This document shows, piece after piece, positions 8,098 through 52,700 of a stretch of DNA of 64,000 nucleotides. Both the position numbers and the translations under genes were made by a program. The notes beneath the pieces are model-generated. The model saw nothing but the letters and a program-made list of their open reading frames with translations. It made no database searches and had not been told where the DNA came from. Position 1 is the stretch's first letter. Each line of letters begins with the position of its first letter. The stretch lies in IMG/VR virus record IMGVR_UViG_3300047472_000191, positions 60,940-124,939 of that record; one strand, 5' to 3'. This stretch comes from a virus.

Positions 8098-9726
8098 ATG
8101 GCGGAACGCGAATTGCTGTTATCCCCTCAGGATGACGGTGCCGCTGTCGAGCTGTCTTCTCGGGTGTACCGCAAGCGGATCCTTCCGAAGGCCACGATCC
8201 ACTACCGTGGCCGCAAGATCACTTTCGATGACCAGTACCTGCACGACCTCGCCAACTCCTTCCAGCAGGGCGCCTACGATCAGGTGGCCTTCATGATGGC
8301 CCCGGACAACAACAGCCACACCCTGGACCCGGAGCGGTTCCGTGGTGAGATCAAGGATGTTGAGGTCGGTGACGATGGCCTGTACGGCATCTTCCAGGTC
8401 ACCCCTGAGGCTGCCAAGGTGCTGGAGCAGAACCCGAAGTTAGGTGTTTCTGCGCGCATCCTCGAAAACTACTCGCGCTCGGATGGGAAGCAATTCCCCC
8501 GGGCGCTTCAACATGTCTTGGGGACCCTCGATCCGGTAATCCCCGGACTGGGTAGCTGGGAAGAGGTTGCCCTGTCCAACGGGATCGATCCGGGCAATGT
8601 GATTGACCTGTCTGAACTTTCCTACGAGGAGTTGGAGCCCGTGACCACACGCGCTGAAAACCTACAGCAGGTGGCTGCGGCTACCGACATGACCGTGGAA
8701 GATCTCGAAGCGCTCGACATGACTGACGACGAGCTGGCGATTTTCGCGTCAGCGTTCGTCGACACCGAGCCTGCGGCAGAGGCTGCGGCCGAATCCGCCG
8801 AGGATGACGAGCTGGTCGAAGAGCCCGGCGAGCAGGGCGATCTTTTCGCTGCGGCGGACGAGGCCACCGACGAGGCTCTCCCTTCCGAGGAGGAGATCGA
8901 AGCCGCTGTGGAGGCCCTCTCCGATGAGGAGCTGACCGCCCTGGCGGCCGAACTCGGCATCCCGGCCGACGAGGAGCTGGAAGCCGCCGAAGAGGCGGGC
9001 GAGGAAGAGGCCACGGCCGAGGTGGAGACCGCCGAAGAGGCCGAAGAGGTTGCTGAGCCCACCGATGCCGAACTGGCGGAGCGCCTGGGCACTGGTGAGT
9101 TCGGCAGCGGCATCGACGAACCCGTTGAGGACCCGGACCTGGGTGACCTGACCGACGAGGCCCTGGCCGAGATGACGGAGATGTGGGAGACCGCTCACGC
9201 CGCCGACGACGCCACGGGCGCGGAGGAAGCTGCCGCTGTCGCCGCCGAAGCCGCCGAGACGGCTGAGACTGCTGTGGAGGCCACGGAGGTGGCTGCCGAA
9301 GCGGCTGAGACCGTTGCGGAAACCCCGCAGCTGGTCGGCGCCGGATCGGTTTCCCTGTCCAACGAGGCCGCCCCCGAGGTTGTGGCCCTGTCCAACCAGG
9401 TGAGCACTCTTCAGCAGCAGCTCGCGGAGCAGCAGTTCGACACCCTCAAGCGGGAGTACGTCCGCCAGGGGGTTCCCTCGGCTCTGGTCGACCTGGCCCG
9501 TCCGGTCCTGGTCGCCGGTCGTGCCCTGGAGTTCTCCAACAGCGTGGGCGACACGGTGGATCCGGCGGACATCGTCCGGCAGCTTCTGGACTCCGCCACC
9601 GGCTACATCGATCTGGCCCGCGAACGCGGTCACAGCTACTCGCCGGAAGCCGAGGACAAGGCGGCGATGGCAGCCGAAGAGGACAAGCGTCTCGCCTCCC
9701 TGTGGGGCGAGCAGTACGGCATCTGA
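8098..9726 (+). CDS. Capsid maturation protease fused to acidic scaffolding protein
   Basis: N-terminal Mu gpI-like protease (H..., GVSARI, LQHVLGTLDP), long Glu/Ala-rich region, position before the capsid genes. Confidence 0.7.
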   Translation: MAERELLLSPQDDGAAVELSSRVYRKRILPKATIHYRGRKITFDDQYLHDLANSFQQGAYDQVAFMMAPDNNSHTLDPERFRGEIKDVEVGDDGLYGIFQVTPEAAKVLEQNPKLGVSARILENYSRSDGKQFPRALQHVLGTLDPVIPGLGSWEEVALSNGIDPGNVIDLSELSYEELEPVTTRAENLQQVAAATDMTVEDLEALDMTDDELAIFASAFVDTEPAAEAAAESAEDDELVEEPGEQGDLFAAADEATDEALPSEEEIEAAVEALSDEELTALAAELGIPADEELEAAEEAGEEEATAEVETAEEAEEVAEPTDAELAERLGTGEFGSGIDEPVEDPDLGDLTDEALAEMTEMWETAHAADDATGAEEAAAVAAEAAETAETAVEATEVAAEAAETVAETPQLVGAGSVSLSNEAAPEVVALSNQVSTLQQQLAEQQFDTLKREYVRQGVPSALVDLARPVLVAGRALEFSNSVGDTVDPADIVRQLLDSATGYIDLARERGHSYSPEAEDKAAMAAEEDKRLASLWGEQYGI

Positions 9727-9765
9727 CCGGGGCTCCCGGCAGCAACTCTAGAAGGAGAGAAAACC

Positions 9766-10227
9766 ATGGGTATGAGCCCCGTCTTCAAGCACGGTTCGCC
9801 GCAGACCTTCCAGGTCCTCAGCTCGGCTGCTGTTCGCGCGGGCCGTCTGGTGGAGTACGTCACCGAGTCCAGCACCACCAAGGTCCAGGAGGCCGGTGTC
9901 ACCTCCCTCAAGGTGGCCGGTGTCGCGATCGACGACGCGGTGGGCACTTCCACCCCGGGTGCGGACATCACCTACGGCACCGGCGTCACCCGACGCGCCT
10001 ACGACACCTCCACGATGGTCGACACCATCGGCGTCTCCACGTGCGGCGTCTGGAACCTGGTCGCGGGTGCGGCCGTCGCCGCGTTCGACGTCCTCAAGGC
10101 CGGTGCTGCGGGCACCGTCGTCACCTGGGTGTCCGGTACCGATTCACCGGCCGCCATCATCGGCATCGCGCAGGCCGCGATCTCCAACGGTGCCACCGGC
10201 CCCGTTTCGCTCCGTCTCGGCGTCTGA
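9766..10227 (+). CDS. Capsid decoration/cement protein
   Basis: VAGVAIDDA...IIGIAQAA pattern; lies between scaffold and major capsid genes. Confidence 0.7.
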   Translation: MGMSPVFKHGSPQTFQVLSSAAVRAGRLVEYVTESSTTKVQEAGVTSLKVAGVAIDDAVGTSTPGADITYGTGVTRRAYDTSTMVDTIGVSTCGVWNLVAGAAVAAFDVLKAGAAGTVVTWVSGTDSPAAIIGIAQAAISNGATGPVSLRLGV

Positions 10228-10268: not shown

Positions 10269-11189
10269 ATGCCTCAGACCACTGTCGGAACCGTTTCTTC
10301 GAACGATGGCTTCCGCCTCACAGTCAACACGCTGCTCAAGCGGCCGACCGTCATCCGGGAGCGCATTCTCCGGCTGGCCGACCAGCAGTTCATCACCGAC
10401 ACGGTGTTACGCAAGGTGCAGGACGTTCCGTCCGGCGTCGTGCTGTACAACGAGTCGACTCCGCTGTACGCCAACGGCGGCCCGTCGGTCGTCGCGGAGG
10501 GCGGCGAGATTCCGCTGATCACGGCGAACCTCGGCATCGGCAAGGCGGCCCGTACCATCAAGCGCGCCTTCGGTATCGAGTTCACCGAGGAGATGCGTCG
10601 GCGCAACGACATGGACCGTGTCAACACGTCCATCGCGCAGGTCGTCAACTCCATGAAGGCCGCCTGGGAGGACGCGTTCCTCTCCGCCGCCATCGCGGGT
10701 CTCGCGTCGACCGCTTCGGGTACCGCGTGGGCGACCGCCACGGACGTCCGGTCCACTCTGGCGAACGCGATGCTGGCGATCCAGCTGGCCGACGCGGAGT
10801 CCACGGACCAGACTGGCGTGCAGAAGTTCGGGTTCGAGCCGGACACGCTGATTCTGCATCACGCGCGTGCGATGGACCTGGCGCTCAACTCCGACATGAA
10901 CAAGTACTTCACCGGTTCCGGCGCCCCGAACTCCGCGTACGCCGACAAGCTGACCCTCCCGGGCCTGCTGTTCGGTCAGTTCAAGGTCGTCAAGTCGTGG
11001 CGTGTCCCGACCAACTCGGCGATCCTCCTGGAGGCCGGGACGATCGGTGGCATCGCCGATGAGCGTGCGTTGGACGTGACGCCGCTGGAGCACAACAGCA
11101 CCAACGAAACGTGGCGCTGCAACGTGGTCCGCCAGTCCGCGATCTTCCTGGATCAGCCTAAGGCGGGACGCGTCATAACGGGTATCTAG
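10269..11189 (+). CDS. Major capsid protein
   Basis: 306 aa, VAEGGEIP motif, FGFEPDTLIL, synteny. Confidence 0.85.
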   Translation: MPQTTVGTVSSNDGFRLTVNTLLKRPTVIRERILRLADQQFITDTVLRKVQDVPSGVVLYNESTPLYANGGPSVVAEGGEIPLITANLGIGKAARTIKRAFGIEFTEEMRRRNDMDRVNTSIAQVVNSMKAAWEDAFLSAAIAGLASTASGTAWATATDVRSTLANAMLAIQLADAESTDQTGVQKFGFEPDTLILHHARAMDLALNSDMNKYFTGSGAPNSAYADKLTLPGLLFGQFKVVKSWRVPTNSAILLEAGTIGGIADERALDVTPLEHNSTNETWRCNVVRQSAIFLDQPKAGRVITGI

Positions 11190-13310: not shown

Positions 13311-13904
13311 GTGATTACTATTCCCGGCAGCATAAACCCGAAGAACGTTGTCGTCGGCGTAGCGTCGGCCTGGATTCAGCCGTACGACCCGAGCGTTCCG
13401 GCTCTCCTGCCTGCGGTCACCATCGCCAAGGGTGCGGACTGGGGCGGCAACTGGCAGAACCTCGGCGCCACCGACCAGGGCTGGAAGCTCCAGATCGGTA
13501 CGTCCACCAAGTCGATCACGATCGAAGAGCAGTCCACACCCGCTCTCGTCATGGCCGACAACCACAGCTACCAGGTGACCGGTGACCTCGCCGAGGACAC
13601 CCTCCAGCACGCCTTATGGGCGTACGGCGGCGGCCAGCTGGTCACCACGGCGGCGGCGTCCGGCGTCCCCGGCTACCAGACCCTGAGCCTCCAGGACAAC
13701 CTGAACTACTGGGCGATCGGCCTGGAGACCATCAACGTGCAGGGCTTCTGGCGCCGGTACCTGATCCCTCAGGGCGTCGTCGGCACCAACGTGGACACCT
13801 CGTTCCGCCGGTCCAACGAGAAGCGCATGTACTCCTTCCAGTTCGAAGGCACCTGCGCCCCGTCCCAGCTCGTCATCCAAGAGATGGTGGCCGCTGCACT
13901 TTAG
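13311..13904 (+). CDS. Major tail protein
   Basis: WQNLGATDQG motif; precedes chaperone and tape measure genes. Confidence 0.8.
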   Translation: MITIPGSINPKNVVVGVASAWIQPYDPSVPALLPAVTIAKGADWGGNWQNLGATDQGWKLQIGTSTKSITIEEQSTPALVMADNHSYQVTGDLAEDTLQHALWAYGGGQLVTTAAASGVPGYQTLSLQDNLNYWAIGLETINVQGFWRRYLIPQGVVGTNVDTSFRRSNEKRMYSFQFEGTCAPSQLVIQEMVAAAL

Positions 13905-13955: not shown

Positions 13956-14342
13956 ATGGCATTCGTTGCTCACGAGGCGATCGAGCCGCTCGACTACGAT
14001 TTCACGCACTTCATGGACGGTTCCGAGGCGAAGGGGACCGTGCCGGAGCCGAGCCAGCAGGCCATGGCGGGGTACCGCAAGGCCGTTCTGGCGGTCGTCC
14101 GCGACTACAAGGACGTTCAGGACGTCGACCCGGACACGTTAAGCAACGACGAGCTTGACCGGATCACCGACCGCGCCGAGGAGCTGGAGAAGCGCATGGA
14201 CGAGCTGACGGCCCGTCTCTGCAAGAACACTCCGTCCGTGGAGACGCTCAGCAAGCTGCCGTGGCGCCACAAGGTGATGTTCTCGAAGTGGCTCCAGGAG
14301 CAGTTCAACCCGGGAAAATTGACGGGCGTTACGAAGGACTGA
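13956..14342 (+). CDS. Tail assembly chaperone (short form)
   Basis: Synteny; slippery G GGA AAA at 14312-14318. Confidence 0.8.
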   Translation: MAFVAHEAIEPLDYDFTHFMDGSEAKGTVPEPSQQAMAGYRKAVLAVVRDYKDVQDVDPDTLSNDELDRITDRAEELEKRMDELTARLCKNTPSVETLSKLPWRHKVMFSKWLQEQFNPGKLTGVTKD

Positions 14343-14707: not shown

Positions 14708-17700
14708 GTGTCCGGAACGTATTCGGCCGGAGACATCGAAGCCTCCCTCAAGTTAGACAGGTCTGAGTTCAACCGGGAACTCACGCAGGCCAAGCGGGAT
14801 GCTGAGGATTTCCAGAAGCAGACCTACAAGCCGAGGGTTTCCCTGGATGATACCGAGGCCAAGACAAAAATCCAGGCGCTCAAGGACGAACTCCAGAGCC
14901 TTCACAACATCACGGTCTCTGCCGCGTTATCGGGTTTCGACTCTGCCAGCACCCACTTAGCGGCCCTCCAGGCGCAAGCCGACCACCTCAATGGCATGGT
15001 CATCACGATTTATGCCGACGTGGACACGACGGCGGCAGCAGCCTCTCTCACCGCACTGCGGGCAGCCGCCAGTGACAACATCACCATCCATGCGGACGTG
15101 GACACGCGGGTAGCTGCGGCGTCTCTTGCACGTTTGCGTGCGGCTGCTGCCGACCCCATCAACATCCCCACTGGGGGCGGGGATCCTGGCGGTCCTGCAC
15201 CAAGGCCTCGCCCTGGTGTCCCCGATGGGGATGATGAGAGGAACCGGAAGCTCAAGGACCCGTTCAAGATCCCGGGGGCGCTGTTCAGCCTTCCGGGGCT
15301 CATTGCCTCTGTTCTGCCTCAGCTCCCGGCCCTGACGACCCTGCTGGGCGGTGCTACGGCTGCGGTGGTCTCGTTCGGTGTCGCGGCGGGCGGTGCCCTC
15401 GGTGTGTACGGCGCCGCGACCATGGGCGCGGTCAAGCAGGCGACGGCACACAAGAAGGCCGTGGAGTCCACGGGCAAGGCGCTTGAGGCGGCCCAGGCAC
15501 GGCTGGCTGGGACCACGGCCGGTACGGCTGCGTACACGAACGCTCTGAAGGCGGTCACGGAGGCGGAGAAGGCGCACAAGGAGGCGCTCAAGGATCTGAC
15601 TCCGGCGGAGAAGCAGTTCACTGACTCCCTGAACGGTGTACAGACTGCCTGGCAGTCGTTCATCAAGTCCACCGAGGTGTACACGCTCAAGCCGGTTGCG
15701 ACCGTCCTGGACGGGGCGAAAGCCGCGCTGCCTCAGCTCATCCCTCTGGTCAAGGATCTCGCCCCCGCTTTCCAGAGCGTGGCCGTGGCCATGAAGAACT
15801 GGCTGAGTGGCGACGGTCTGCACCGGTTCGTCTACTTCCTCCGGACTACTGGTGTGCCGATCGTGCTCCACATGATCGCCGGGTTCCGGACGTTCATGGC
15901 GGCAGGCGGTGCGCTTATGCGCGCGTTCGGGCCGATTGCAGTAAAAATGTCCGAGTACTTCGAGACACTGGGCAAAAAATCGGAGGCGTGGGCACAGGGC
16001 GGGGGAGTGCTCCGGTTCCGCGATCACTTCTTTGAGGCCTGGCACCAGCTCAAGCCGATTTTCAGTGAGCTGATCACCCTCGTCGGGCACATCTGGGAGA
16101 TCCTTCAGGGGACCGGCAGCCCCAACGCGAACGCTCTCGTAGGTGTGCTGCACGGGCTGAACACGGCCATCGGGAACCTTCAGCCCGCAGCGGTGAAGTC
16201 TCTGGGCGAGATCTTCCAGTCCATCAGCGACGTGGCGATCCAGCTGGCTCCGGTCATCGGGATCACGTCCAAGGCGATCGTCGACATCATCAACGTGCTG
16301 CCGCCCGGGACGATCCGGGCTATCGCGGACGCCATGATCGCGTGGAAGCTGGCCGTCCTCGGATGGAATGCCGCCATTGCGGCCTGGGCCTTCCTCACCT
16401 CGATTATCGCAGGCCTGACGCTGGCCTGGCGCACCCTCAGTTTTGTTTTCGCGGCTTCTCCGATCGGTGTCATTGTCACGGGCCTTATCCTGCTTGTCGG
16501 GATCATTGTCCTGATCGCCACGAAGACCACCTGGTTCCAGACACTTTGGAAATACACCTGGGAAGGCATAAAAATTGCCGCCCACGCTGTATGGGTCAAC
16601 GTGTTGCAACCTACTTTCCATGGGATTTGGGTTGGCCTCCAGGAAATCGGCAAATGGGGTGTATGGCTGTGGAACAACGCCCTTAAACCGGCATGGAACG
16701 GGATCGCCAGCGGCGCTTCCTGGCTATGGGGCTACCTCAAGCCGGTGCTTGTGGGCATCGGAAACGCATTCATGCTGGTCGGCAAGGTCATCTGGATTTT
16801 CTGGTCCACCTACGCCAAGGTCGTCTTCATTATTTTCGAAGCGGCTATCAAGGCGCTCTGGCTGTACGTCCTCAAACCGGTGTTCGGGTGGATCGCCGCA
16901 GGCTGGCACGCCCTGGGTACGGGCGTGATGTGGGTCTGGCATCACCTGCTCAAGCCTGCCTGGGACCTGGTGGTCGCCGGAGCCATTTACGTGTGGAACC
17001 ACGGCGTCAAGCCCGCCATCGGGTGGATCACCGCAGGCTGGCATGCCGTGGGTGACGGCGTGATGTGGGTGTGGCGGCACCTGCTCAAGCCTGCCTGGGA
17101 CATGGTGTCGGATGGTGCCACCAAGCTGTGGAAAAACTACATTTCGCCGGTATTCAACGGAATCAAGAACACCATCAGCGACAAGTGGGACTGGATCAAG
17201 GCGCACGTATTCAGCCCGATGGGTGATTTCTTCACCAAGAAGATCCCCGGCTGGGCCGACACGATGAAGGGCAAACTGGTCACCGCCTTCGATACCGCTT
17301 GGAAGGGTATTCAGAAGGTCTGGGACAACGTCAAAAAGGCGATCGGGTCGCCTATCTACCTGGTCGCGAAGTACGTCTGGAATGACGCGATTTACGGGAT
17401 CATGGACAAGATCTCCGGATTCGTGCACCAGAAGAACCCGCTCGGGAAAATCCCGCTGGACAACATCCCGCACTTCGCAGCCGGTGGCCCGGTACGGGGA
17501 GGTACCCCCGGCAAGGACTCCGTGCTGTCCATGCTGATGCCCGACGAGCACGTCCTCACCCGCGAGGACGTCGCAGCCATGGGTGGTCAGCACGCCGTGG
17601 CTCGCTTCCGTTCCGCCCTGCACGGCGGCGCCCCTGTCCAAGGCGCCAACAACACGGGCCACTTCGGCATCGGCGGCTGGATCGGCGACGCAGGCTCCGC

Positions 17701-19366
17701 CCTGGCCGGGACTGTCAGCAAGGGCCTGGGCGTACTCAAGGACGCCGTCCTGGGGGCTGTCGGGGTCGTGGTTAACCCGCTTCTGAACGCCGCCGAGAAG
17801 ACCGTCGACAAGCTCATCCCAGCCAACGGCGGCTGGGAAAACCTGGCCAACGGAACGTTGAAGCAGCCGATCGAATGGATCAAGGGCTTCATCAACAAGG
17901 AAGACAAGAAGGCCCAATCCGTCGGCGGCGTCATCCCGGCCGGACAGCACCTCGCGATCATCGACGCAGCCCTGAAGGCTGCGGGAGCCCCTCCGCCCGG
18001 AACTAAGGAGCAGTGGGAAGCCGGGATGAACACGCTGATTCAGCGTGAGTCCGGGTGGAACGCCTCCGCCATCAACAACTGGGACTCCAACGCGAAGGCC
18101 GGGCACCCCTCGCAGGGTCTGACGCAGACGATCCCGTCCACGTTCAACGCCTACGTTCCGCCAGCGCTGCGGAGCCTGGGCATCCTCAACCCGATTGCCA
18201 ACGTCGCGGCCTCCGTCCGCTACATCAAGTCCGTGTACGGCGGCATCCAGAACGTTCAGCAGGCCAACGCCAACAAGGCCCCCAAGGGCTACTGGACCGG
18301 TACCTCTGGGGCCGCTCCGGGTATGGCCTGGGTCGGTGAGCGCGGTCCCGAGCTGATCGACTTCCACGGCGGGGAGACGGTCTACAACAACGGCGACTCG
18401 ATGCGCATGCTGCGTTCCGGGCTGCTCGGGGGCCTGCACGGCTACGCCTCCGGTACCGCGAAGCAGCGGTCCACCGTGCGCCGGACTTACCACGAACTGG
18501 ACAGCGACACGGCCCGGCGCAACGCCGCACAGAAGGCCTACAACGCGGCGCACACGAAGTACCTGAACGCGACCACGGCCAAGGAGCAGCAGGCCGCGCG
18601 CAAGGAGATGGACAAGTACCAGAAGCGGATCGACAACGCGAACAAGGAGATCGCGGCCGACAACAAGTTGATCAAGCTGCACGACAAGAAGTACAAGGCC
18701 GCCTCGGATGCCGTCCGCCGGGAGCGGGCCGATGCTGCGGCTCTGGCGGCTGCTCGCAAGAAGAAGCGGGACGCACAGATCTCTGCGGCCCGGACGGCGG
18801 CGCAGAACTTCATCAACAACGCGAAGGCCAAGATCGACGCGAAGCTCCAGGTGGCGACCGATGCCCGCAACGGGTATTACGACGCGGCGAAGCAGAGCGG
18901 ACAGCTGACCAACCTGACGGGCAACCGGGCGGCCGGGTTCACCCAGCAGCTTCAGGCGAAAATCACTGCAATCAAGAACTTCCAGGCAAACCTGCACAAG
19001 CTGGCTACTCTCGGCCTCTCGCAGGGGGTTATCCAGCAGATCGCGGCCATGGGGGCGGACCAGGGCGGGGCGCTGGCTCAGTCGCTTGCCCGGACGACGA
19101 CGGCGGCCGATGCGAAGGGTCTCAACGCGAAGTACGCGGAGCTGGACAAGGTGGCAGGGCAGTACGCGGATTCGGCTGCGAATGACGGGTACGGTCTGAG
19201 TTCCCTAAAGGCCCAGTCAGCAGTTCTTTCCAAGACGAAGATTACGGTAACGGCGCCGAATACGATCATGGTTACTATTGACGGAAAGACCTTCAAGGCC
19301 CACACCGAAAAGGTTGTTGAATCGAAGGTGACCGAGATCGTGGACAAGGCTGGAAAGAAGAAGTGA
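14708..19366 (+). CDS. Tape measure protein with lytic transglycosylase domain
   Basis: 1552 aa, Trp-periodic repeats, IQRESGWNASAINNWDSN..SQGLTQTIPSTF. Confidence 0.92.
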   Translation: MSGTYSAGDIEASLKLDRSEFNRELTQAKRDAEDFQKQTYKPRVSLDDTEAKTKIQALKDELQSLHNITVSAALSGFDSASTHLAALQAQADHLNGMVITIYADVDTTAAAASLTALRAAASDNITIHADVDTRVAAASLARLRAAAADPINIPTGGGDPGGPAPRPRPGVPDGDDERNRKLKDPFKIPGALFSLPGLIASVLPQLPALTTLLGGATAAVVSFGVAAGGALGVYGAATMGAVKQATAHKKAVESTGKALEAAQARLAGTTAGTAAYTNALKAVTEAEKAHKEALKDLTPAEKQFTDSLNGVQTAWQSFIKSTEVYTLKPVATVLDGAKAALPQLIPLVKDLAPAFQSVAVAMKNWLSGDGLHRFVYFLRTTGVPIVLHMIAGFRTFMAAGGALMRAFGPIAVKMSEYFETLGKKSEAWAQGGGVLRFRDHFFEAWHQLKPIFSELITLVGHIWEILQGTGSPNANALVGVLHGLNTAIGNLQPAAVKSLGEIFQSISDVAIQLAPVIGITSKAIVDIINVLPPGTIRAIADAMIAWKLAVLGWNAAIAAWAFLTSIIAGLTLAWRTLSFVFAASPIGVIVTGLILLVGIIVLIATKTTWFQTLWKYTWEGIKIAAHAVWVNVLQPTFHGIWVGLQEIGKWGVWLWNNALKPAWNGIASGASWLWGYLKPVLVGIGNAFMLVGKVIWIFWSTYAKVVFIIFEAAIKALWLYVLKPVFGWIAAGWHALGTGVMWVWHHLLKPAWDLVVAGAIYVWNHGVKPAIGWITAGWHAVGDGVMWVWRHLLKPAWDMVSDGATKLWKNYISPVFNGIKNTISDKWDWIKAHVFSPMGDFFTKKIPGWADTMKGKLVTAFDTAWKGIQKVWDNVKKAIGSPIYLVAKYVWNDAIYGIMDKISGFVHQKNPLGKIPLDNIPHFAAGGPVRGGTPGKDSVLSMLMPDEHVLTREDVAAMGGQHAVARFRSALHGGAPVQGANNTGHFGIGGWIGDAGSALAGTVSKGLGVLKDAVLGAVGVVVNPLLNAAEKTVDKLIPANGGWENLANGTLKQPIEWIKGFINKEDKKAQSVGGVIPAGQHLAIIDAALKAAGAPPPGTKEQWEAGMNTLIQRESGWNASAINNWDSNAKAGHPSQGLTQTIPSTFNAYVPPALRSLGILNPIANVAASVRYIKSVYGGIQNVQQANANKAPKGYWTGTSGAAPGMAWVGERGPELIDFHGGETVYNNGDSMRMLRSGLLGGLHGYASGTAKQRSTVRRTYHELDSDTARRNAAQKAYNAAHTKYLNATTAKEQQAARKEMDKYQKRIDNANKEIAADNKLIKLHDKKYKAASDAVRRERADAAALAAARKKKRDAQISAARTAAQNFINNAKAKIDAKLQVATDARNGYYDAAKQSGQLTNLTGNRAAGFTQQLQAKITAIKNFQANLHKLATLGLSQGVIQQIAAMGADQGGALAQSLARTTTAADAKGLNAKYAELDKVAGQYADSAANDGYGLSSLKAQSAVLSKTKITVTAPNTIMVTIDGKTFKAHTEKVVESKVTEIVDKAGKKK

Positions 19367-19367: not shown

Positions 19368-20696
19368 ATGCCGGTTGTAGTCCCCACAGGATCCCCGGTC
19401 TCCTCTTCGACCACGGACTCGACGTCTTTCGACGGACGTATCCGGGTCATAGACGACCCGGCGTTCGGCGGTGTCCGCATCAAGATCGACTACTCGTTGG
19501 ACCTCAACTTGTGGTCCAACCCTTTCCAGTGCACGGTGTACCGGAAGCACGAAGACGGCTCCGTGTACACGGTGCGTGGCGGAGACCCCTACCTCAACTA
19601 CGCAGGCAAGGGCTGGCTGTACGACCAGGAAGCCCCCCTTGGCCAGCCCGTCTCCTACTACGTCGTACCCATCGACGCCGACGGGGGCACGGGGGTCCAG
19701 TCGGCTGTCGCCTCCATTCTCACGGGCACTCCGGCGGGCGGTTTCAACAGCCCCGACATGTGGCTGGTCAACCTCGCCGATCCCAGCGCCTCGGTGCGGG
19801 CACGCGGCCTCAACACGCTTGCCGGTAACTACAACGGGCGCAGCGACAAACAGACGGTCCTCGGCAGCCCCTTCCCCACGGTGACGCCGGACACCCGGAA
19901 CGGACTGAGCACCCAGATAACTGTGCTCACGGTCGGGCAGCAGGAATTCGTTGCCATGCAGAAGCTCTTGAAGCAGAGCATCATCATGCGGAAGTCGTCG
20001 TTATGGGAAAGGCCTGACGGCTATTTCACCGTGGACGACGCCTCCTATGCAGCCCAGACCGCCGGAACAGGGCGAGGCGCGTACGCCTGGCAGATGGGCC
20101 TTACCGAGGTAAACCGCCCCAATACGTACGGCCAGACCGTCGCCAGTCCCTCTTTCACCTTTGCCTCATATCGGGATCAGTTCCCGCTGTTCAGTGATGC
20201 CCCCATGCTGCCGTTCGATGCCATCCAGGGCGGCAACGTCATGGACCCCAACACGTCCAGCCTGGAAACCGACGATTCACAGTGGGTGGCAAACACCAAC
20301 ACGACCAAAACGTGGTCGGCGGAACAGGCCAAGCAGGGCACGCACTCCCTGAAAATGGTCGCCACGACCGTCGGCGTTTTCGGAGCGTTCACCGGGCCGC
20401 GCTTCCCGGTGAACCCGGACGCCGTCTACACGTTCACGGCGTGGCTGTACAGCCCGAACGGCCTGGTGGCGGACCTTCAGCTCGACTGGAAGGACGGTGC
20501 GGGCGGCTACCTCGCCAGTGATTCCCTCGGTGAGTGGGGGCGGACGGTGGCGCTCACCCCCAACATCTGGACCAAGGTCGCTCTGTCCGTCAAGCCGGTT
20601 CCCGGGGCAGCTCTGGTCACGCCGCTGGTCCGTCTGACCGCAACAGCGGGCGGCCAGGTCGGTTATGCGGACAGCATGAGTCTGGAGAACATCTGA
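19368..20696 (+). CDS. Minor tail protein (distal-tail-like) with C-terminal carbohydrate-binding module
   Basis: Follows tape measure; C-terminal CBM-like GTHSLK..YTFTAW..WTKV. Confidence 0.7.
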   Translation: MPVVVPTGSPVSSSTTDSTSFDGRIRVIDDPAFGGVRIKIDYSLDLNLWSNPFQCTVYRKHEDGSVYTVRGGDPYLNYAGKGWLYDQEAPLGQPVSYYVVPIDADGGTGVQSAVASILTGTPAGGFNSPDMWLVNLADPSASVRARGLNTLAGNYNGRSDKQTVLGSPFPTVTPDTRNGLSTQITVLTVGQQEFVAMQKLLKQSIIMRKSSLWERPDGYFTVDDASYAAQTAGTGRGAYAWQMGLTEVNRPNTYGQTVASPSFTFASYRDQFPLFSDAPMLPFDAIQGGNVMDPNTSSLETDDSQWVANTNTTKTWSAEQAKQGTHSLKMVATTVGVFGAFTGPRFPVNPDAVYTFTAWLYSPNGLVADLQLDWKDGAGGYLASDSLGEWGRTVALTPNIWTKVALSVKPVPGAALVTPLVRLTATAGGQVGYADSMSLENI

Positions 20697-25696: not shown

Positions 25697-26089
25697 ATGA
25701 GCGTTCCGTTAGACACCCTCATAACCACGGGTGCAGTGGTCTTCGGGAGCTTATCGACCTACGCAGGGACGCGGTACATGGGTCGGAATACGAACGCCAC
25801 CGAAAACCGCAAGGTAAAGCTCAGTGAGTTCGAGACGTTCAAAGAGGCGTACTACGAGCAGATCGCTGAGTTCAAGGAACGCTACGCGACTCAAGAAGCG
25901 AAGATGAACAAGGTGGAACGTCTGCTTCGCCTGGCTCTCAAGCACATCCGGGACCTGCGCACCGACATGCGGCAGCACGACGTCATTCCGTCCCACGGGA
26001 CGCCGTCCGAGCTGGAGAGCCTGCTGTGGACTCTCACGGATGAGGACGATGCGGAGGTCACCGCGTCGCACCCCGGATCGGGGGAGTGA
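25697..26089 (+). CDS. Membrane protein with coiled coil (lysis cassette)
   Basis: N-terminal hydrophobic helix followed by a coiled coil. Confidence 0.65.
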   Translation: MSVPLDTLITTGAVVFGSLSTYAGTRYMGRNTNATENRKVKLSEFETFKEAYYEQIAEFKERYATQEAKMNKVERLLRLALKHIRDLRTDMRQHDVIPSHGTPSELESLLWTLTDEDDAEVTASHPGSGE

Positions 26090-39396: not shown

Positions 39397-39400
39397 TCGT

Positions 39401-44229: not shown

Positions 44230-45123
44230 ATGCCCCCGTTACCGTTAGGCCGCCTTCATGCTCAGCCCGGACGTCCGCAGCTACGTCTAGCGGACTACCT
44301 CACCGGGACACTCCCTGCCCCTCCCGCTTCAGTGGACTGGTATAGCAAGGTCACCTCGTGGCCTATGTACCTCAATGACTCGATTGGTGACTGCACGTGT
44401 GCGGCCGTGGGGCACCTTCTCCAAGGCTGGACGGCCTACAGCACCGGTAAGGCGCTCACCGTCGCCGACAGCGATGTCCTCGGCCTCTACGAGAACGTCA
44501 CCGGGTACAACCCGCAGGATCCTTCAACGGATCAGGGCGCGTACGTCCAGGACGTGTTGGGGTACTGGCGCAAGAACGGTGTGGCCGGGCACAAGATCAC
44601 CGCGTACGCCAGCGTCAAGGTTTCCAACATGACGCTGATCAAGCAGGCGATCAGTCTGTTCGGCGCCGTGGACATCGGCTTCAACTTCCCTGCGTCCGCG
44701 ATGACGCAGTTCAACCAGGGCAAGCCGTGGTCCGTCGTCTCCGGGTCCAAGGTCGAGGGCGGGCACTGCGTCACGGTTGTCGGCTACAAGGCCAACGGCA
44801 ACCTGGTCTGCGTCACCTGGGGCGCCCTGCAAGAGATGACCCCGTCGTTCTTCGCGAAGTACGTGGACGAAGCGTGGGCGATCATCACACCGGACTGGCT
44901 CGACGCCAACGGTCACACCCCGCAGGGGATCGACCTGTACACGCTGGGGCAGGATTTCGCCGTTCTGACCGGGTCCCCGAACCCGATCCCGCAGCCTTCC
45001 CCGCAGCCGACGCCGACTCCTGTGCCGACTCCGGTGCCGGTACCCGTCCCTGCGGTCGACGCGGAGGTGCTGGCCGCTTACCGGTCGCTGCGCGCGTGGG
45101 CCGTAGCCAACAACGCCGCCTGA
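44230..45123 (+). CDS. Papain-like cysteine peptidase with Pro/Thr linker
   Basis: NDSIGDCTCA, GGHCVTVVGY, VTWG. Confidence 0.8.
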   Translation: MPPLPLGRLHAQPGRPQLRLADYLTGTLPAPPASVDWYSKVTSWPMYLNDSIGDCTCAAVGHLLQGWTAYSTGKALTVADSDVLGLYENVTGYNPQDPSTDQGAYVQDVLGYWRKNGVAGHKITAYASVKVSNMTLIKQAISLFGAVDIGFNFPASAMTQFNQGKPWSVVSGSKVEGGHCVTVVGYKANGNLVCVTWGALQEMTPSFFAKYVDEAWAIITPDWLDANGHTPQGIDLYTLGQDFAVLTGSPNPIPQPSPQPTPTPVPTPVPVPVPAVDAEVLAAYRSLRAWAVANNAA

Positions 45124-45692: not shown

Positions 45693-45787
45693 ACAGAGAG
45701 CCCGCCCGGATGACTCCCCGGGCGGGTTTCTCTATGCCTCCTGATGTGCTAGGGTAGACAAACCTTATCTCCCGAGGGGATCACCCG

Positions 45788-47145: not shown

Positions 47146-49659
47146 ATGCCGTTACCCTCAGGCTTAGCAACGGTCACCATCACCGGATCCGCCACCGCGC
47201 CCGGCACCGGAGACCCGCTGATCGGGCGCATCACCTTCACACCGGACGCACAGCAGATCATCGACCTTGCCGCCGGATCCCTCATCACGGGATCGGTAAT
47301 TGCCGAACCGGACAGCCTCGGTAACTTCTCGGCCACGGTACTCGCCCCTGACTCCGACGGTATTTCCCCCGCGCTGTGGACTTACAAAGTGGAGATGGAT
47401 TTCATCGGGGTAGACCCCTACATCTTCCACATCTCCATTTCCAAGAACACCCCCACCGTCGACTTGTCCACGCTCATTCCGATCGGCCCGACCACCGGCA
47501 ACGTCGTAGGCCCGTCCACTGTTCAGGGTGACCTCCACGTCACCGGCAATTTCACCGTGGGCAGTGTGGCCCCAGGCGTCATCGACCCCATCCCGCACGC
47601 CACCCGGCACGCCATCGGAGGCGTGGACCCCCTCACCCCGGCGGCCATCGGGGCACTGACCCAGACCACCGCAGACGGGCGCTACGCGGCCAAGTCGTCC
47701 GTCGTCCTGGACTGGATCAACCCGGACAACTACGGGGCAGTGGGCGACGGCACCACCGACGACACAGCCGCCCTTCAGGCCGCCCTCAATGCATGTCCGG
47801 CGGGCGGCGTCGTCTACCTGCCGGTGGGTATCTACCGCACCAGTGCACCGCTCAAAATCCCGCCCTACGTCACCCTCCAGGGCAGTCACGGAGGCGGGGA
47901 GGCACAGAGCACCTCTTCCCCGACCCCGTCCTGCATCAAGCCTCTGCCCAGCTTCACCGGCAACGCGGTCATCCAGATCCTCGACCAGCAGCTCGGCGGC
48001 TACACCTCCCTGTGCTCCGAGGTCGCGATCCGCAACCTGACCATCGTGGGATCGGGATCCCCGGCTGGTGTGGACGGCATTCTCGCCACCGGTCAGATCC
48101 AGATGCTCTCCCTGCGGGACGTCCACGTCCGCAGCGTCACCGGCAAGGGCATCAACACCGCCTACAACCTGAGCGCTCCGCCAGGACCGCAGGCCCCGTT
48201 TTGCTTGCACTTCGAACGTGTTTCCGTCCTGTGGTCGGGAAGCCACGGCGTCGTCCTCAACAACAGCACGGACTCGACCTTCAACGATGTCTACGTCCTC
48301 GGGTGCTCCGGCTTCGGCTGGTTCATCTCCGGGGCCAGCGGTTCTCAGTGGATTGCATGCCGCGCGGAATGGTCCGGGCTGGACGGATTCAACCTGGCGG
48401 GCAACACCGGCACGGAGACGTTCATCGGCTGCTCCACCGACCGGAATGGCCAGAACGGGTTCTCGGTCTCTTCCTCCGCCGACACGGGCACGATCATGCT
48501 GTCCGGCTGCCGGATGACCCGCGACGGGAAAAGCAGCACTGGCGCCGGGTATGCCGGGCTCAAGGTCAGCAGCAACGCGCGCAAAGTCATCGCCGACAAC
48601 CTGGTGATCACCACAGGGAAAGACGACAACGGAACCGGCAACCTGACCCCGCAGTACGGTGTGTCAGCCAGCAACTCCGCCTACGTTGTTGTGGCCTCGG
48701 GGGACCTCAACGGGGTGTCCGCCGGATGGAACGACGGTGGCGGCAACACCACGTTCCAGCGGGGCACCACCGTTACCGGTACCGGGATCACCTCGTCGAT
48801 GCCTCGCTTGGACCAGCTCACCGCACCGACCGCATCGGTGGCTCTGAACGCCCAGAAGATCACGGGCTTGGCCAACGGGTCGGCCGCAGCGGATGCCGCT
48901 GCGTTCGGTCAGATCCCCACCGCTGCCACATCGGTGGTGAACCCGACGACGTACGGGGCGGCCTCGGCTACGGGATCGTCAACGGCGTACGCGCGGCAAG
49001 ACCATTCGCATGGCACCCCGGCCATGCCCCGGCTGGACCAGGTCAGTGCGCCTACCGCAGCGGTGGCTTTGAACGCCCAGAAGATCACCGGTCTGGCCAA
49101 CGGGTCCGCAGCCTCCGACGCAGCCGCCTTCGGGCAGATCCCCGTCGCAGGCACCGCAGCGGGCACCTACACCGCAGGCAACGACTCCCGGGTCACCGGG
49201 GCGCTCCAGGCCGCCAACAACCTCTCGGACGTGGCGAACAAGGTGACGGCTCTCCAGAACCTTGGCGCCCCCGGCAAAACCTGCACCACGAACGAGACCA
49301 ACTCCACCGTCACTCAGCAGGCGTCCACTCAGCTGGTGGTGCCTGTGGTGGCTAACGCCGTCTACGCGGTCGCGGGCAAGCTGGCAATTCAGACTCCGTC
49401 GGCCGTGAACTTCGTCCACGGATTTACCGGCCCCACCGGGGCCACCATGATCTGGGGCGACTCCAGCACGTTCATCGCCACCATTGGCGGCACTGACAGC
49501 TGGTCAGGCACAGGGGCCACCAAGTGGGCGAACATATTCGGGACGCTCACCACTGGCGCCAACGCCGGAAACCTCACAGTGACGTTCGCCTCGGGCACCG
49601 CCGCAAACACGGCGACACTGGCAGCCGGGAGCCAAATCCTTCTTACGAGGGTCGGATGA
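47146..49659 (+). CDS. Tailspike-like protein 1, pectate-lyase-fold beta-helix
   Basis: YGAVGDGTTDDTAALQAAL..VYLPVGIY, parallel beta-helix repeats, fibre repeats. Confidence 0.8.
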   Translation: MPLPSGLATVTITGSATAPGTGDPLIGRITFTPDAQQIIDLAAGSLITGSVIAEPDSLGNFSATVLAPDSDGISPALWTYKVEMDFIGVDPYIFHISISKNTPTVDLSTLIPIGPTTGNVVGPSTVQGDLHVTGNFTVGSVAPGVIDPIPHATRHAIGGVDPLTPAAIGALTQTTADGRYAAKSSVVLDWINPDNYGAVGDGTTDDTAALQAALNACPAGGVVYLPVGIYRTSAPLKIPPYVTLQGSHGGGEAQSTSSPTPSCIKPLPSFTGNAVIQILDQQLGGYTSLCSEVAIRNLTIVGSGSPAGVDGILATGQIQMLSLRDVHVRSVTGKGINTAYNLSAPPGPQAPFCLHFERVSVLWSGSHGVVLNNSTDSTFNDVYVLGCSGFGWFISGASGSQWIACRAEWSGLDGFNLAGNTGTETFIGCSTDRNGQNGFSVSSSADTGTIMLSGCRMTRDGKSSTGAGYAGLKVSSNARKVIADNLVITTGKDDNGTGNLTPQYGVSASNSAYVVVASGDLNGVSAGWNDGGGNTTFQRGTTVTGTGITSSMPRLDQLTAPTASVALNAQKITGLANGSAAADAAAFGQIPTAATSVVNPTTYGAASATGSSTAYARQDHSHGTPAMPRLDQVSAPTAAVALNAQKITGLANGSAASDAAAFGQIPVAGTAAGTYTAGNDSRVTGALQAANNLSDVANKVTALQNLGAPGKTCTTNETNSTVTQQASTQLVVPVVANAVYAVAGKLAIQTPSAVNFVHGFTGPTGATMIWGDSSTFIATIGGTDSWSGTGATKWANIFGTLTTGANAGNLTVTFASGTAANTATLAAGSQILLTRVG

Positions 49660-49725
49660 CGCACCGTCCGGGACAGCTGCCTGCTGTCCCCCGCATTTCG
49701 ATTACGGATGTACAGGAGAACTGAA

Positions 49726-52700
49726 ATGCCGTTACCGCTGGGTTTATCAACGGTCACCGTATCGGGCCGGGTCACGCGTCCTGGTCAAGGCACGAACCCT
49801 GACCCGTTGGTCGGCCGCATCACGTTCATCCCCGATGTCCCGCAGATCGTAGCCACCGCATCCGGTTCTCTCATCTTCGGCACCGTCACCGCTGAACCGG
49901 ACGGTGCCGGGGATTACTCGGCTGTTCTTCTGGCCCCCGACAGCGCCGGTATTTCCCCCTCGGGCTGGACCTACCGGGTAGAAATTCATTTCCTCGGAGT
50001 GCAGGACCCCGATGTCTTCCGCATCGCCCTGTCCAAGAACAATCCCACGGTCAAACTGACCACACTCATTCCCGTGGGCCCGACTTCCGGGAACTCTGTA
50101 GGCAGCAGCACCATCGAAGGTGATCTGCACGTTCTCGGGGACCTGACGGTCGGCGGCAGCGCCTTCATCAACGCCCTGCCGCACGCGTCCACGCACGCTG
50201 TGGGCGGTACCGACCCGGTCACTCCCGCTTCCATCGGCGCCGACCCCGCAGGCGCCGGTACAGCCGCACGCGCGTACGCGGACAGCCTGATACCCAACGA
50301 CTGGATCAACGTCCGCAAGGCCCCGTACAACGCGGCCGGGGACAGCATCACGGACGACCGGGCCGCCATTCAGGCTGCGTTGGATGCCGCCCACGCTCGT
50401 GGCGGAGGCACCGTCTACCTCCCTGTGGGCACGTACGGGCTCGGCGCGACGCTGAACATGCCCGCAGGCGACGGAATCCAGATCGTCGGCTCCGGCTGGA
50501 AATCCGTCCTCAAGGTCATGTACGGGGCGAACTGCTACGCCATCACGTTCCCCGCAGCGGACACCCGCGTCGCCATCCGGGATTTGATGATCGACGGAAA
50601 CTGCGGCTCCCAGACCACCGCTTCGGGCGGCATCTACGCTGCGGGCGCGGTCGCGAGCGACTTCGAGCACATCCACTTCACCGCCTGCCGGGACGACGCG
50701 CTGTATCTCGGCCCGCAGACCGGAGGCGTGTTCGGCCACAACAACAGGGTCGTCCGCTGCCTGTTCGACCAGTCCATGAACTCGACTGGTCCGGGCCGGG
50801 GCATCCACATGGACAGCTCCGACGAGAACCAGATCATCGCCTGTGACTTCGAGTACCTGGGCGGATCAGGCGGTACCGGATCCGGTACCGCTTCCATGAT
50901 CTACGACCAGTGCGGCACCCAGTTCATCTCGGACTGCAACTTCGTCAACGGCGCCAACAACGTCATCGGCGTGCGGGTGCAGGACGCCAAGTCCACCAAG
51001 ATCACCGGCTGCAACTTCGACGGCCTCGCCGGGACCGCGATTTTCCTCGCCGCACAGCGGTGCATCGTCACCAGCAACACGATCTTCTCCCCGGGGCACT
51101 CCGGTACAGCGGGCCAGGCCTCCGGCATCCACCTGGAGTACGCCACCGCCGACAACGTCATCACCGACAACGTCATCACCTCCGACGCGGCCAACGGCAT
51201 CTCCCGGGGCGCCATCCGGGAAGCCTCCGACGGCGCCTCCGGCGGCAACAACATCAGCAACAACACGATCGTCACCCTCGGCACCTGGTCCTACGCGGCG
51301 CTCGACTTGAGCGGCAAGGGCTCGCAGGTACTGGGCAACATCGGCGGCGGCCTCACGGGCAACCAGGGACTGTTCGTCAACCCCAAGACCCCTGCCTACA
51401 AGGCGGTCGGCGACGGCACCACGGACGACACAGCCGCGATCCAAGCCGCCCTCACCGACTGCCCGCAGGGCGGCACCGTCTACCTTCCCAGAGGCGTCTA
51501 CCGCACCTCCGCTCCGCTGGTCATCCCGCCCGGGGTCACACTCCAGATGCCCCGCGCAAGCCTGATGGTCGTGGCAGGTCTGACCAACCCGCCGTGCGCG
51601 ATCAAACCGCTGGCCTCGTTCACCGGTGCCGCCGTGATCCTGCTCAAGGACGCCGCTACCGGCGGGTACGGCGCCATTTCAGCGGAACAGCGCCTCATCG
51701 ACGTCCAGATCGACGGCTCCGCCTACACCGCTACCGCACTGGACGGCATCCAGGCCAAGGGCAACGTCCAGAACGTCGTCATGCGGGGCGTCACCATCCG
51801 CTACATGTCCGGCAACGGCATCTACACGAACGTCAACGCGGGCTACTACCCGTACTCGTGGCGCCTGTACCGGGTGATGGCCGACAACAACGCGGGCCAC
51901 GGCTTCTCCTTCACCCTGATGACCGACATCACCATGTTCGACTGCCAGGCCATCGGCAACGTCGGTAACGGATTCAACCTGATAAACCTCGCCAACAGCC
52001 AGCTGACCGGATGCCGCTCCGAATGGAACGGGAACTACGGCTACCTGTTCACCGGCAGCTGGGGGTCCGGCACCAGCTCCGGCGGCGTTCAGGTCACCGG
52101 ATGCTCGACAGACCGCAACGGGTTCGACGGCATCCACATCGACTCCACCGGTACGCCCCCGCTCATTTTCAGCGGGCTGATGCTGCGGCGTGACGGCCGC
52201 AACGGCGGTACCGGAGGCGGCGGGTATGCGGCCCTCGCCACCTACGGCACCACCACTCCTATCGTCGTCACGGGACTGACCGTGTTCCCCGGGGTGGACG
52301 ACACCGGAGCGGGCACGAACAGCCCCCAGTACGGCATCAACGTGCAGAACGCCACCACGGTGTTCACGCTCAACAACGCGTTCGTTCAGGCGGCGACCAC
52401 CGCTGTCCGGGACGACGGCACGAACGGCAAGGTGCTCATCGGTCCGGCGGTCGTCACGGCCACCGGTACGACCGCCGCTCCGGTCATTGCGCCGACCTCC
52501 CCGTGGAACTGGCTCGGTACCGCGACCGCACGGCACACGACGGCGGCATCGAACATCCTCGAAGGCCGTGTGGTGGGGGAGAACTTCTCTCGGGCTGTGA
52601 TGCGCGCGGACGGTCTGATCGTCCTCGGGGACGGCACTGGTGTTCCGGACACCACCGGCTTCTACCGGGAGTCTGCGGGCAACCTCAAGACCGACGCCTA

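Follow-up and report, generated by a model that had tools for sequence, protein, structure and literature searches.

The analyzed window comprises 64,000 nt and is the right half (record positions 60,940 to 124,939) of a 124,939-bp virus record, a 97%-complete genome with a GC content of 64%. The genome appears to belong to an uncultured Streptomyces-type phage whose host very probably comes from the family Streptomycetaceae; the relatives of its lysin belong to this family in 52 of 52 cases. In 503 kb of host-family DNA, taken from the loci of the lysin relatives, TTA was the rarest codon tallied (0.18 per 1000), in line with the rarity assumed in the initial annotation, and the GC content was 70.5%. 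Virion genes (packaging, head and tail), tailspike genes and lysis genes were defined as the late class; their "late" timing was assigned from gene function, promoters and terminators. Five related contigs (G001 to G005) were used for comparison, which gives six long contigs including this genome.

The initial annotation had listed 23 TTA codons in the window. All 23 are indeed in-frame TTA codons of the named long ORFs, and independent gene calls gave the same figures of 22 codons in 15 genes. The 23rd codon (42710) sits in the doubtful ORF 42440-42766, which was rejected by the gene caller (GC3 0.70). Unless indicated otherwise, the genes described here are located on the plus strand. The window starts with the 3' part of a gene for a giant head-module protein of 1931 aa (1..4443), whose 3 TTA codons are located just upstream of the window; there are 4 if the start is taken 11 codons further up. 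A 542-aa head-module protein (8098..9726) contains TTA at 8119 (codon 8) and 8440 (codon 115); its earlier label as a protease found no support in Pfam and PHROG. The major capsid protein (10269..11189), a label backed by PF25209, has TTA at 10407 (codon 47). Within the same head module a primase/polymerase-like gene is encoded on the minus strand (5113..6945; phrog_5177, E 3e-102). It contains no TTA in 610 codons, as is also the case for its orthologues in five of five relatives, and provides an internal control.

In the tail module TTA is present in the genes for a major tail (tube)-like protein (13311..13904; 13614, codon 102), the protein at the tail-chaperone position (13956..14342; 14139, codon 62), the tape measure protein (14708..19366; 14753, 14927 and 14957), a tail protein matching phrog_11649 (19368..20696; 20001) and three tail-region proteins (22634..23269 with TTA at 22709, codon 26; 23281..24345 with 23563; 24345..25316 with 25071). 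The lysis cassette contributes a 130-aa protein (25697..26089; 25709 and 25751, codons 5 and 19) and the holin (26689..26907; 26848, codon 54), which was identified as such by PF16945 (E 4e-9). Upstream of the window TTA also occurs in the genes for TerL, the portal and a 107-aa protein, in addition to the giant protein.

Further downstream, two genes of unassigned function carry the codon: a 189-aa protein located after PolA (39401..39970), with TTA at 39413 (codon 5) if ATG 39401 is used, and a 297-aa protein matching phrog_19005 (44230..45123; 44239 and 44245). The latter has no homology to tailspikes in a comparison with both spikes of this phage, and a terminator-like hairpin lies directly upstream of it. 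Two tailspike-like beta-helix proteins follow at 47146..49659 (PF12708, PF13229) and 49726..53031 (PF12708, PF24146, PF13229). Because of their pectate-lyase/beta-helix, tailspike-like character both were counted as virion genes; the N-terminal 240 aa of the first are 57% identical to the second. The TTA sites reported for them are present and in frame, but the likeliest starts had to be revised to ATG 47146 and ATG 49726, both preceded by a Shine-Dalgarno sequence at a distance of 7-8 nt. With these starts TTA is located at codons 3 and 7 of both genes. Using the revised starts, 9 of the 22 window codons fall within the first 8 codons of their gene. Most of the 5' TTA sites follow a start supported by a Shine-Dalgarno sequence with no alternative start nearby, and the codons thus lie inside true coding sequence, as in bldA-dependent host genes.

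The earlier statement that TTA is absent from the helicases, SNF2, ThyX, the AAA ATPase, PolA and the nucleases was confirmed for SNF2 (27618-29018), the PD-(D/E)XK nuclease (30427-31419), ThyX (32300-33016), the AAA_24 ATPase (35161-36180) and PolA (37378-39396). An early-type promoter motif with an extended -10 element (TGCTAGGGTAGA...) is located at 45750..45766 on the plus strand. It is one of 51 copies, and in none of these 51 cases does the first gene downstream bear TTA. Hairpin terminators precede the genes for the lysin, TerL, the tape measure protein and the 297-aa protein. Outside the late block the late genes with TTA are those for the GH25 lysin and both tailspikes, so TTA tracks gene function rather than map position. 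An NlpC/P60 hydrolase located in the early region, with an early-type promoter upstream, has no TTA.

Genome-wide and in frame, TTA accounts for 29 of 964 leucine codons in late genes versus 8 of 1,781 elsewhere (odds ratio 6.9, p 8e-8), a contrast that drops to an odds ratio of 1.7 (p 0.03) once the early class is widened by all 62 low-GC3 gap ORFs. TTA-bearing genes make up 20 of 34 in the late class, leaving 14 late genes without the codon, versus 4 of 153 others; these four have no demonstrated late function. One could suppose that TTA has no function and is a chance feature, or a compositional or horizontal legacy of a structural-module ancestor with lower GC, and the GC content of the phage genome is indeed well under that of the host family. 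However, late and early genes do not differ in GC3, and the other A/T-ending codons are not enriched: the odds ratios of CTA, AGA, CCA, CGA and TTG are 0.5-0.8 in the late block, so that the AT control proposed earlier leaves the contrast intact. The effect is also specific for the reading frame, as out-of-frame TTA shows no enrichment in late genes. A position-independent expectation calculated as TTG x CTA/CTG amounts to 1.0 TTA for the late genes, where 29 occur, and to 4.3 for the others, where 8 occur. Altogether, the enrichment persists when AT-rich codons, 5' position, the reading frame and the choice of start are controlled for. Late genes scattered on the map share TTA, distant relatives with the same capsid module contain only 0-3 TTA, and TTA is retained above other rare leucine codons and often gained. 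An absence of function, already disfavoured, is therefore extremely improbable, and there is good support for the view that late genes bear TTA as a selected translational mark.

The comparison with the relatives had been suggested as a check of positional conservation. All five long relatives repeat the split between the gene classes, with TTA sites both conserved and newly gained. TTA was retained at 29 of 53 sites; the corresponding figures are 2 of 22 (CTA) and 18 of 95 (TTG), and gains numbered 46 for TTA and 12 for CTA. Codon 115 of the 542-aa protein is TTA in 17/17 aligned relatives, and codon 8 is TTA in 11/17 and TTG in 6/17. Capsid codon 47 is TTA in 17/21 aligned relatives and in all six long contigs (6/6). 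In several genes the position varies among relatives: TTA is located either at codon 102 or codon 33 of the major tail-like protein, at codon 62 or 81 of the gene at the tail-chaperone position, and at codon 54 or 13 of the holin. Tape measure orthologues contain 4-6 TTA each, and the orthologue of the 189-aa protein in G003, as called, has none. Pattern, specificity and conservation of the codon are thus direct observations in this clade. Streptomyces phage Crosby, the closest named relative among those checked, has 1 TTA in 15,642 codons; the mark is therefore dispensable for such phages.

The distribution of TTA within the genes is strongly biased. The first 20 codons, which hold 10% of all codons, contain 17 of the 37 TTA (46%), compared with 26% of CGA, 19% of ATA, 18% of CTA and of AGA and 8% of TTG. 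The UUA codons of Streptomyces and Kitasatospora themselves show a similar 5' bias (PMC13072593, available sections). The bias would also be compatible with a tuning of expression without any switch, in which UUA as the slowest codon forms a 5' ramp or pause that spaces ribosomes or balances output, and neither an on/off control by bldA nor a link to development exists. Actinobacterial genes are described as having a general excess of rare codons at their 5' ends (PMC13072593, available sections). The small number of TTA per gene, with zero in 14 of the 34 late genes, would also fit. On the other hand, the class split is restricted to TTA among the rare codons compared, the others being less enriched in late genes or at 5' ends; early genes hold at most 2 TTA within their first 20 codons, although they too require 5' ends that favour initiation; and 20 of the 37 TTA lie beyond codon 20. 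Tuning is thus a fairly improbable reading of the data.

A phage-encoded tRNA-Leu(UAA) outside the window would have contradicted a dependence on the host tRNA. The window is free of tRNA-Leu genes, as the initial annotation had noted, and in the complete 124,939 bp the only tRNA gene is a short-arm tRNA-Leu(CAA), near-cognate to UUA, which lies about 15 kb upstream of the window start. A tRNA-Leu(UAA) was detected neither in this 97%-complete genome nor in the relatives, including those spanning its ends. G001 and G002 contain the tRNA(CAA) alone, G003-G005 are free of tRNA genes, and the CAA anticodon is conserved across three diverged lineages.

This tRNA offers another key for the late genes: if abundant, it could read UUA by a near-cognate C-A pairing and insert leucine, and the late lock would be opened by the phage itself, as an internal timer or as a bypass of bldA, and not by host development. 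The sole tRNA of the genome indeed belongs to the UUR-leucine box. In the available text of two reports CAA is the only anticodon named as able to misread UUA while keeping leucine, and in both S. clavuligerus and E. coli tRNA-Leu(CAA) is suspected of reading UUA (PMC4932002, PMC6614811). UUG is hardly commoner in the phage than in host-family DNA (4.3 vs 3.6 per 1000), so UUG demand does not obviously explain the tRNA, and UUA is 12-fold over-used in late genes. Yet one C-to-T change would produce a true UUA reader, and CAA has been conserved; its cognate codon TTG shows no late-gene enrichment (45/964 vs 99/1,781 elsewhere); and efficient C-A reading is unproven. Moreover, short tRNA(CAA) genes were detected in 45 phage stretches of <57% GC, many within tRNA arrays, which makes a tRNA of this kind common cargo of phages. 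We consider an opening of the lock by the phage tRNA rather unlikely. A combined version, in which the phage persists and spreads in vegetative mycelium as a ParA-partitioned replicon and its about 20 UUA-locked late genes stay translationally silent until its own tRNA-Leu(CAA), reading UUA by C-A pairing at high dose, the maturation of host bldA or both open them, appears quite unlikely.

In Streptomyces the bldA tRNA-Leu(UAA) is described as the single cognate reader of UUA, with a small active pool in young hyphae (PMC4932002, PMC2000904), and the available part of PMC4932002 reports one bldA gene in each of six Streptomyces genomes. The best explanation overall, which we hold tentatively and at slightly less than even probability, is that TTA is a selected mark, that UUA limits late translation and that host bldA tRNA relieves this limit. 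We infer that particle production would in this way be coupled to the state of the mycelium. TTA would have been positively selected on the packaging, head, tail, tailspike and lysis genes of the phage clade. One to three UUA codons, often among the first 20, would stall ribosomes early on late mRNAs, and the UUA-decoding capacity of the cell would then determine how much virion and lysis protein is made. The TTA-free early genes for replication, partition and anti-defence, transcribed from host-type promoters, would be translated freely. Against this explanation stand the 14 late genes free of TTA, the TTA-free NlpC/P60 hydrolase, the four TTA-bearing genes outside the late class, the lower contrast obtained with the gap ORFs, the rarity of TTA in Crosby, the leakiness of bldA dependence in Streptomyces (PMC4932002) and the retention of a tRNA-Leu near-cognate to UUA. 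Judged from the codon distribution, late protein synthesis probably waits on a scarce tRNA, and it is plausible that the mark depends on bldA and on the development of the host.

The same codons could act on the host instead, as abundant UUA-rich late mRNAs might titrate the bldA tRNA and block host TTA genes for development, antibiotics and possibly defence late in infection. TTA is concentrated in genes expected to be most highly expressed, and an interplay of UUA-bearing mRNAs, limiting bldA tRNA and ppGpp is discussed by Hesketh et al. (PMC2000904, available text). However, the phage would slow its own essential proteins, a role of host TTA genes during infection is without support, and the 5' bias is not required for titration. 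Such a sponge effect is very unlikely.

A late mark that would be relieved by bldA resembles known systems in part. In T4-type phages early and late codon classes are matched by phage-encoded tRNAs. This phage likewise has a codon that is rare in early and common in late genes, but a cognate tRNA to match it is missing from the 124,939 bp: the single tRNA present reads UUG, a codon without a class split. In the Streptomyces phages phiHau3/StrepC.1, Smith et al. (2013) reportedly found a UUA in the terminase gene and proposed translational bypassing and a function as sensor of host state (as cited in PMC10732093); two UUA are said to head frame-breaking inserts of 10 nt, and the terminase was reportedly proposed to be made without the tRNA. 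Both cases concern UUA in an essential late gene of a Streptomyces phage. Bypassing of this type was ruled out here, as TerL is a single open frame of 567 aa (phrog_2 match over residues 36-531) with TTA at codon 16. With this frame unbroken the logic is opposite to that of phiHau3; furthermore, about 20 genes are marked here.

The bldA/TTA regulon of Streptomyces, with adpA and pathway regulators as examples, shares with the phage a rare in-frame UUA that is often located at the 5' end and conserved in orthologues; the host family, in which UUA is described as having one cognate tRNA, is very likely that of the phage too (PMC4932002, PMC13072593, PMC10732093, partly from excerpts). It differs in that one TTA is usually located in a regulator, whereas the phage has about 30 TTA directly in about 20 structural and lysis genes. 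The SLP/eCIS particles of Streptomyces also link a phage-like particle to UUA. Their production depends on bldA via a 5' UUA of slpR/SCO4263, and a bldA deletion is described as particle-free (PMC8505568, available sections). In that system a single TTA is located in one LuxR-type regulator, in contrast to the TTA spread over the structural genes of an infectious element. Streptomyces phage CW39 has nine TTA genes (two HNH endonucleases and seven hypothetical) among 208 ORFs, and bldA dependence was suggested; the available part of that report contains no late-gene enrichment, statistics or conservation (PMC13350457).

Streptomyces phage genomes are usually without UUA (PMC10732093), and the available text of PMC2000904 argues that a phage should be harmed by UUA in its highly expressed genes, which may be why the bldA checkpoint arose. 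This clade does the reverse, as it places UUA mainly in those genes for which the highest expression is expected and keeps it through turnover in the absence of a cognate tRNA. Should late translation be gated by these codons, the making of virions would depend on a host tRNA that signals the developmental state of a multicellular bacterium, and TTA could serve as a sequence-only marker of late genes in such phages. bldA mutants are described as still translating TTA genes, especially highly transcribed ones (PMC4932002, available text). The late mRNAs of the phage are likely abundant, and a dependence on bldA would be leaky.

The 124,939-bp record, of which the window covers bases 60,940-124,939, has a CheckV completeness of 97% and a GC content of 62-66% along its entire length. 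Streptomyces griseus phages, Crosby among them, provide the 11 best of 242 records that match its capsid protein (PF25209), at an identity of 39-40%, and the genes follow the Crosby order of terminase, portal, MuF, giant protein, reversed genes, scaffold, capsid, tail, lysis and replication. By its sequence the virus classifies as an actinophage. A megablast search with 12 kb for near relatives among named phages returned four records with a coverage of at most 1%. The codon counts for this genome refer to a set of 187 genes with 34,536 codons from a self-trained caller, the calls and starts being made in this analysis.

The initial annotation had listed 23 TTA codons in the window and had assigned 22 of them to 15 genes. 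All 23 positions read TTA and all are in frame. The same 15 genes were called independently, but the remaining codon at 42710 sits in a doubtful ORF. The window gaps 39971-40561 and 42441-44229 have a low GC3 in all frames and lack a convincing gene; several short TTA-bearing ORFs, ORF 42440 among them, are located there. The pattern extends 5' of the window, where TTA is found at codon 16 of TerL, codon 6 of the portal, codon 5 of a 107-aa protein, codon 12 of a 416-aa exonuclease-like protein and codons 6, 33 and 43 of the giant protein, and also in a 109-aa protein. After three starts had been shifted upstream to SD-backed ATGs, 37 in-frame TTA codons were counted genome-wide.

To compare late and early genes by map position, the block at genome 50,475-88,130 was set against the remainder. 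TTA accounts for 23 of 879 leucine codons in the block and for 9 of 1,858 in the rest (OR 5.5, p 4e-6), at the same GC3 (0.83 in the block, 0.83 and 0.85 in the remainder). The control codons CTA, AGA, CCA, CGA, GGA and TTG gave odds ratios of 0.5-0.8 in the block, so that no general surplus of A-ending or rare codons exists in the late genes. We additionally used a functional late class, which is an inferred class consisting of the plus-strand block, the GH25 lysin and two tailspikes and leaving out the HNH gene of the block and a pair of small promoter-driven genes. With this class the TTA share of leucine codons was 29/964 in late and 8/1,781 in other genes (OR 6.9, p 8e-8), and 20 of 34 late genes contain TTA, compared with 4 of 153 others (p 3e-14). 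This corresponds to 2.24 and 0.37 TTA per 1000 codons. From TTG x CTA/CTG, 1.0 TTA codon was expected in the late class (29 seen) and 4.3 in the other genes (8 seen). In-frame TTA occurs at 0.74 per kb in late and 0.12 per kb in other genes (p 5e-7), whereas the other two frames show 0.67 and 0.56 versus 0.41 and 0.52 (p 0.09 and 0.78). These figures demonstrate that late genes are enriched and not merely that early genes are depleted. The contrast was kept when the longest possible start was used for each gene (33/1,009 versus 15/1,939, p 1e-6). It fell to an OR of 1.7 (p 0.03) when all 62 intergenic gap ORFs of at least 50 aa were added as early genes, which we do not regard as a fair test, as these ORFs have a GC3 of 0.43-0.77 and many overlap each other. 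We conclude that the TTA pattern is genuine, under selection and linked to the inferred late function.

TTA follows gene function rather than location on the map, and several TTA-bearing genes are located outside the block. The GH25 muramidase (lysin, 515 aa) in the left arm contains two TTA codons, and the right arm adds two tailspike-like proteins of the pectate-lyase/beta-helix type, which are also TTA-bearing. The N-terminal domains of this pair are 57% identical, and both have TTA at codons 3 and 7 despite differences at 6 of the first 33 bases. Within the head module, an oppositely oriented primase/polymerase-like gene has no TTA in 610 codons. The other TTA-bearing genes outside the block encode a RyR-domain protein, a 189-aa protein after PolA, a 297-aa phrog_19005 protein and a YaeF/C92-like permuted papain protein with four TTA codons, which may be a wall hydrolase. 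Nowhere else in the genome is TTA as dense as at 38606-39398 (plus strand), where this gene is joined by a 70-aa ORF just upstream with three further codons; the orthologues of the papain-like gene in the related contigs G001 and G002 retain two TTA each. A counter-example is the NlpC/P60 peptidase (genome 34692-35168, plus strand), a wall hydrolase with an early-type promoter and no TTA, which departs from the rule.

In IMG/VR, 21 contigs encode a capsid 86-99% identical to that of the reference. When positional conservation of TTA was examined in aligned related contigs, some sites were fixed and others had moved. TTA is present at window position 8440 in 17 of 17 aligned relatives, at 10407 in 17 of 21, at 8119 in 11 of 17 (TTG in the remaining six), at 14927 in 8 of 11 and at 13614 in 2 of 11. 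Capsid codon 47 is TTA in six of six contigs; moving sites are found at codon 102 or 33 of the tube, 62 or 81 of the chaperone-position gene and 54 or 13 of the holin. At Leu-conserved sites in eight representative contigs, TTA was retained at 29 of 53 positions, CTA at 2 of 22, TTG at 18 of 95 and CTT at 40 of 163; the lineages share ancestry, and p values on these retention counts overstate their independence. Relatives have TTA at 46 positions where the reference uses a different leucine codon, and CTA likewise at 12. The split between late and other genes was repeated in all five long contigs, which were fetched whole: TTA per leucine codon was 16/432 and 2/1,206 in G001, 20/644 and 5/1,158 in G002, 25/721 and 0/415 in G003, 26/679 and 0/167 in G004, and 26/622 and 0/226 in G005. 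In the left arm of G001 (about 110 genes) only the lysin and the C92-like gene contain TTA. TTA numbers 0-3 in the 1,659-6,186 codons of each of seven distant capsid relatives and one in the 15,642 codons of Crosby; the late-gene mark is specific to this clade.

The likely host was approached using the GH25 lysin. Among 185,579 species with one genome each, 52 of 72 candidate loci were confirmed, and each of the 52 titles names Streptomyces, Streptacidiphilus, Kitasatospora or Actinacidiphila. In these loci (503 kb, 70.5% GC), TTA accounts for 23 of 124,770 codons. Seven of the 52 Streptomycetaceae lysin homologues (loci L033-L084) contain TTA, counted over stop-to-stop frames that may exceed the true CDS. 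The simplest mechanism would be a translational gate on late genes that is set by the UUA-decoding capacity of the Streptomycetaceae cell. The bldA tRNA would be the main holder of this capacity, in line with the bldA-gated late programme proposed in the initial annotation; we hold this reading tentatively, at somewhat less than an even chance. PMC4932002 describes the UUA tRNA gene as single and states that bldA mutants express TTA genes when these are over-transcribed. The formation of tail-like particles requires bldA via one TTA in slpR (PMC8505568). According to PMC10732093, UUA is found in 1.9% of phage genes, and bypassing is proposed for the UUA of the phiHau3 terminase when the tRNA is absent (citing Smith et al. 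2013). Nine TTA genes are mentioned for phage CW39 (PMC13350457). In literature titles and abstract openings we found no late-gene-wide TTA enrichment in a phage; such cases may be present among the supplementary UUA gene clusters of PMC10732093, which cover 161 phages.

The position of the codons within genes bears on one of the two main rivals, in which TTA would tune the rate of translation without acting as a switch. The first 20 codons hold 17 of the 37 TTA and the first 10 hold 12, while the share in the first 20 codons is 10% for all codons, 8% for TTG, 18% for CTA and 26% for CGA. A 5' enrichment of UUA in Streptomyces and Kitasatospora is described in PMC13072593, and expression of highly expressed phage genes with UUA should drop according to PMC2000904. 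5' TTA is nearly missing from true early genes, and we consider rate tuning rather unlikely. The nucleotide context of TTA is not distinctive: a slight excess of G precedes it (57%) and A after it is scarce, and the same applies to CTA.

A 17-nt extended -10 promoter motif with the core TAGGGTAGAT is present in 51 copies genome-wide, usually with TG 5' of the core and a TTG-type -35 element at about 17 nt. A small gene follows 35-50 nt downstream of the majority of copies (window examples at 4755, 29023, 40799, 45750, 59210, 60122, 61259, 61651 and 63750). The gene that comes next lacks TTA at all 51 copies, and the motif defines an early regulon. Upstream of 20 TTA genes, the search for a late-promoter motif yielded only GGCTATTTC in 3 of 20, which was not convincing. 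GC-rich hairpins with a T run are found directly 5' of the lysin (genome 15095-15213, minus strand), TerL, the 542-aa head protein, TMP, gene 44230 (window 44168-44194) and tailspike 1 (window 47055-47145), and may insulate the scattered TTA genes among these (44230, tailspike 1 and the lysin) from early transcription. The genome encodes a ParA-like ATPase (genome 42191-43162, minus strand), a DUF2637 protein (40203-41393, minus), a tyrosine recombinase (18289-19203, minus), a Prim-Pol (32268-33200, plus) and an ArdC-N/IrrE-like protein (10692-11636, minus). We regard the five together as a hint at a carrier state of temperate or plasmid-like type, and on the first four it is conceivable that late genes have to be kept silent in such a state.

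The other main rival assigns the key to the late-gene TTA to a tRNA of the phage itself. The sole tRNA of the genome is a Leu(CAA) of 76 nt with a 5-nt variable loop at genome 45897-45972 (minus strand), some 15 kb outside the window on its 5' side; a single base separates it from the GTG start of the ORF that follows. Three anticodons could misread UUA, and CAA alone among them yields leucine, as stated in PMC4932002. Counterparts with compensating stem changes are present in G001, at 76 nt, and in G002, where the variable arm is longer and the total length 83 nt; no further tRNA was detected in these two contigs, which cover the junction of the two ends of the reference. The Streptomyces sequence that matches the phage tRNA best is the 74-nt tRNA-Leu(CAA) native to the genome in question, with 78% identity over the full length. 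The S. coelicolor tRNA-Leu(CAA) is also short-armed; the LeuRS of that species charges it, and the E. coli enzyme does not (PMC6614811). A pattern scan of viral_contigs for tRNA(CAA) gave 63 stretches, two of which belong to this clade. Short forms (73-79 nt) made up 51 of the 63, and for 45 of them the GC content of the stretch is below 57%, many being part of large tRNA arrays. Short tRNA(CAA) genes are common in phages of 30-57% GC, and the short arm by itself is no host marker. A role of the phage tRNA as the key to late-gene TTA seems improbable to us.

G011, a complete 108,881-bp virus record unrelated to this clade and the only such high-GC match (L116, L134, L178), was considered as a separate lineage whose lone tRNA(CAA) might bear on the link to TTA, and rejected. 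Its tRNA-Leu(CAA) lies at the extreme end and a partial copy (3' half) at the opposite end, which fits an integration site and not cargo; G011 looks like a prophage inserted in that tRNA gene. Editing of C34 to U34 in the tRNA(CAA) by a neighbouring deaminase likewise found no support: the 216-aa protein at genome 43397-44047 (minus strand) matches dCMP_cyt_deam_1, in NCBIfam it scores best against ComEB, though well short of the cutoff, and TadA is not matched. Downstream of the tRNA, this ComEB-like dCMP deaminase adjoins an ADP-ribosylglycohydrolase (genome 43397-45154 for both, minus strand), which is preceded by an early promoter.
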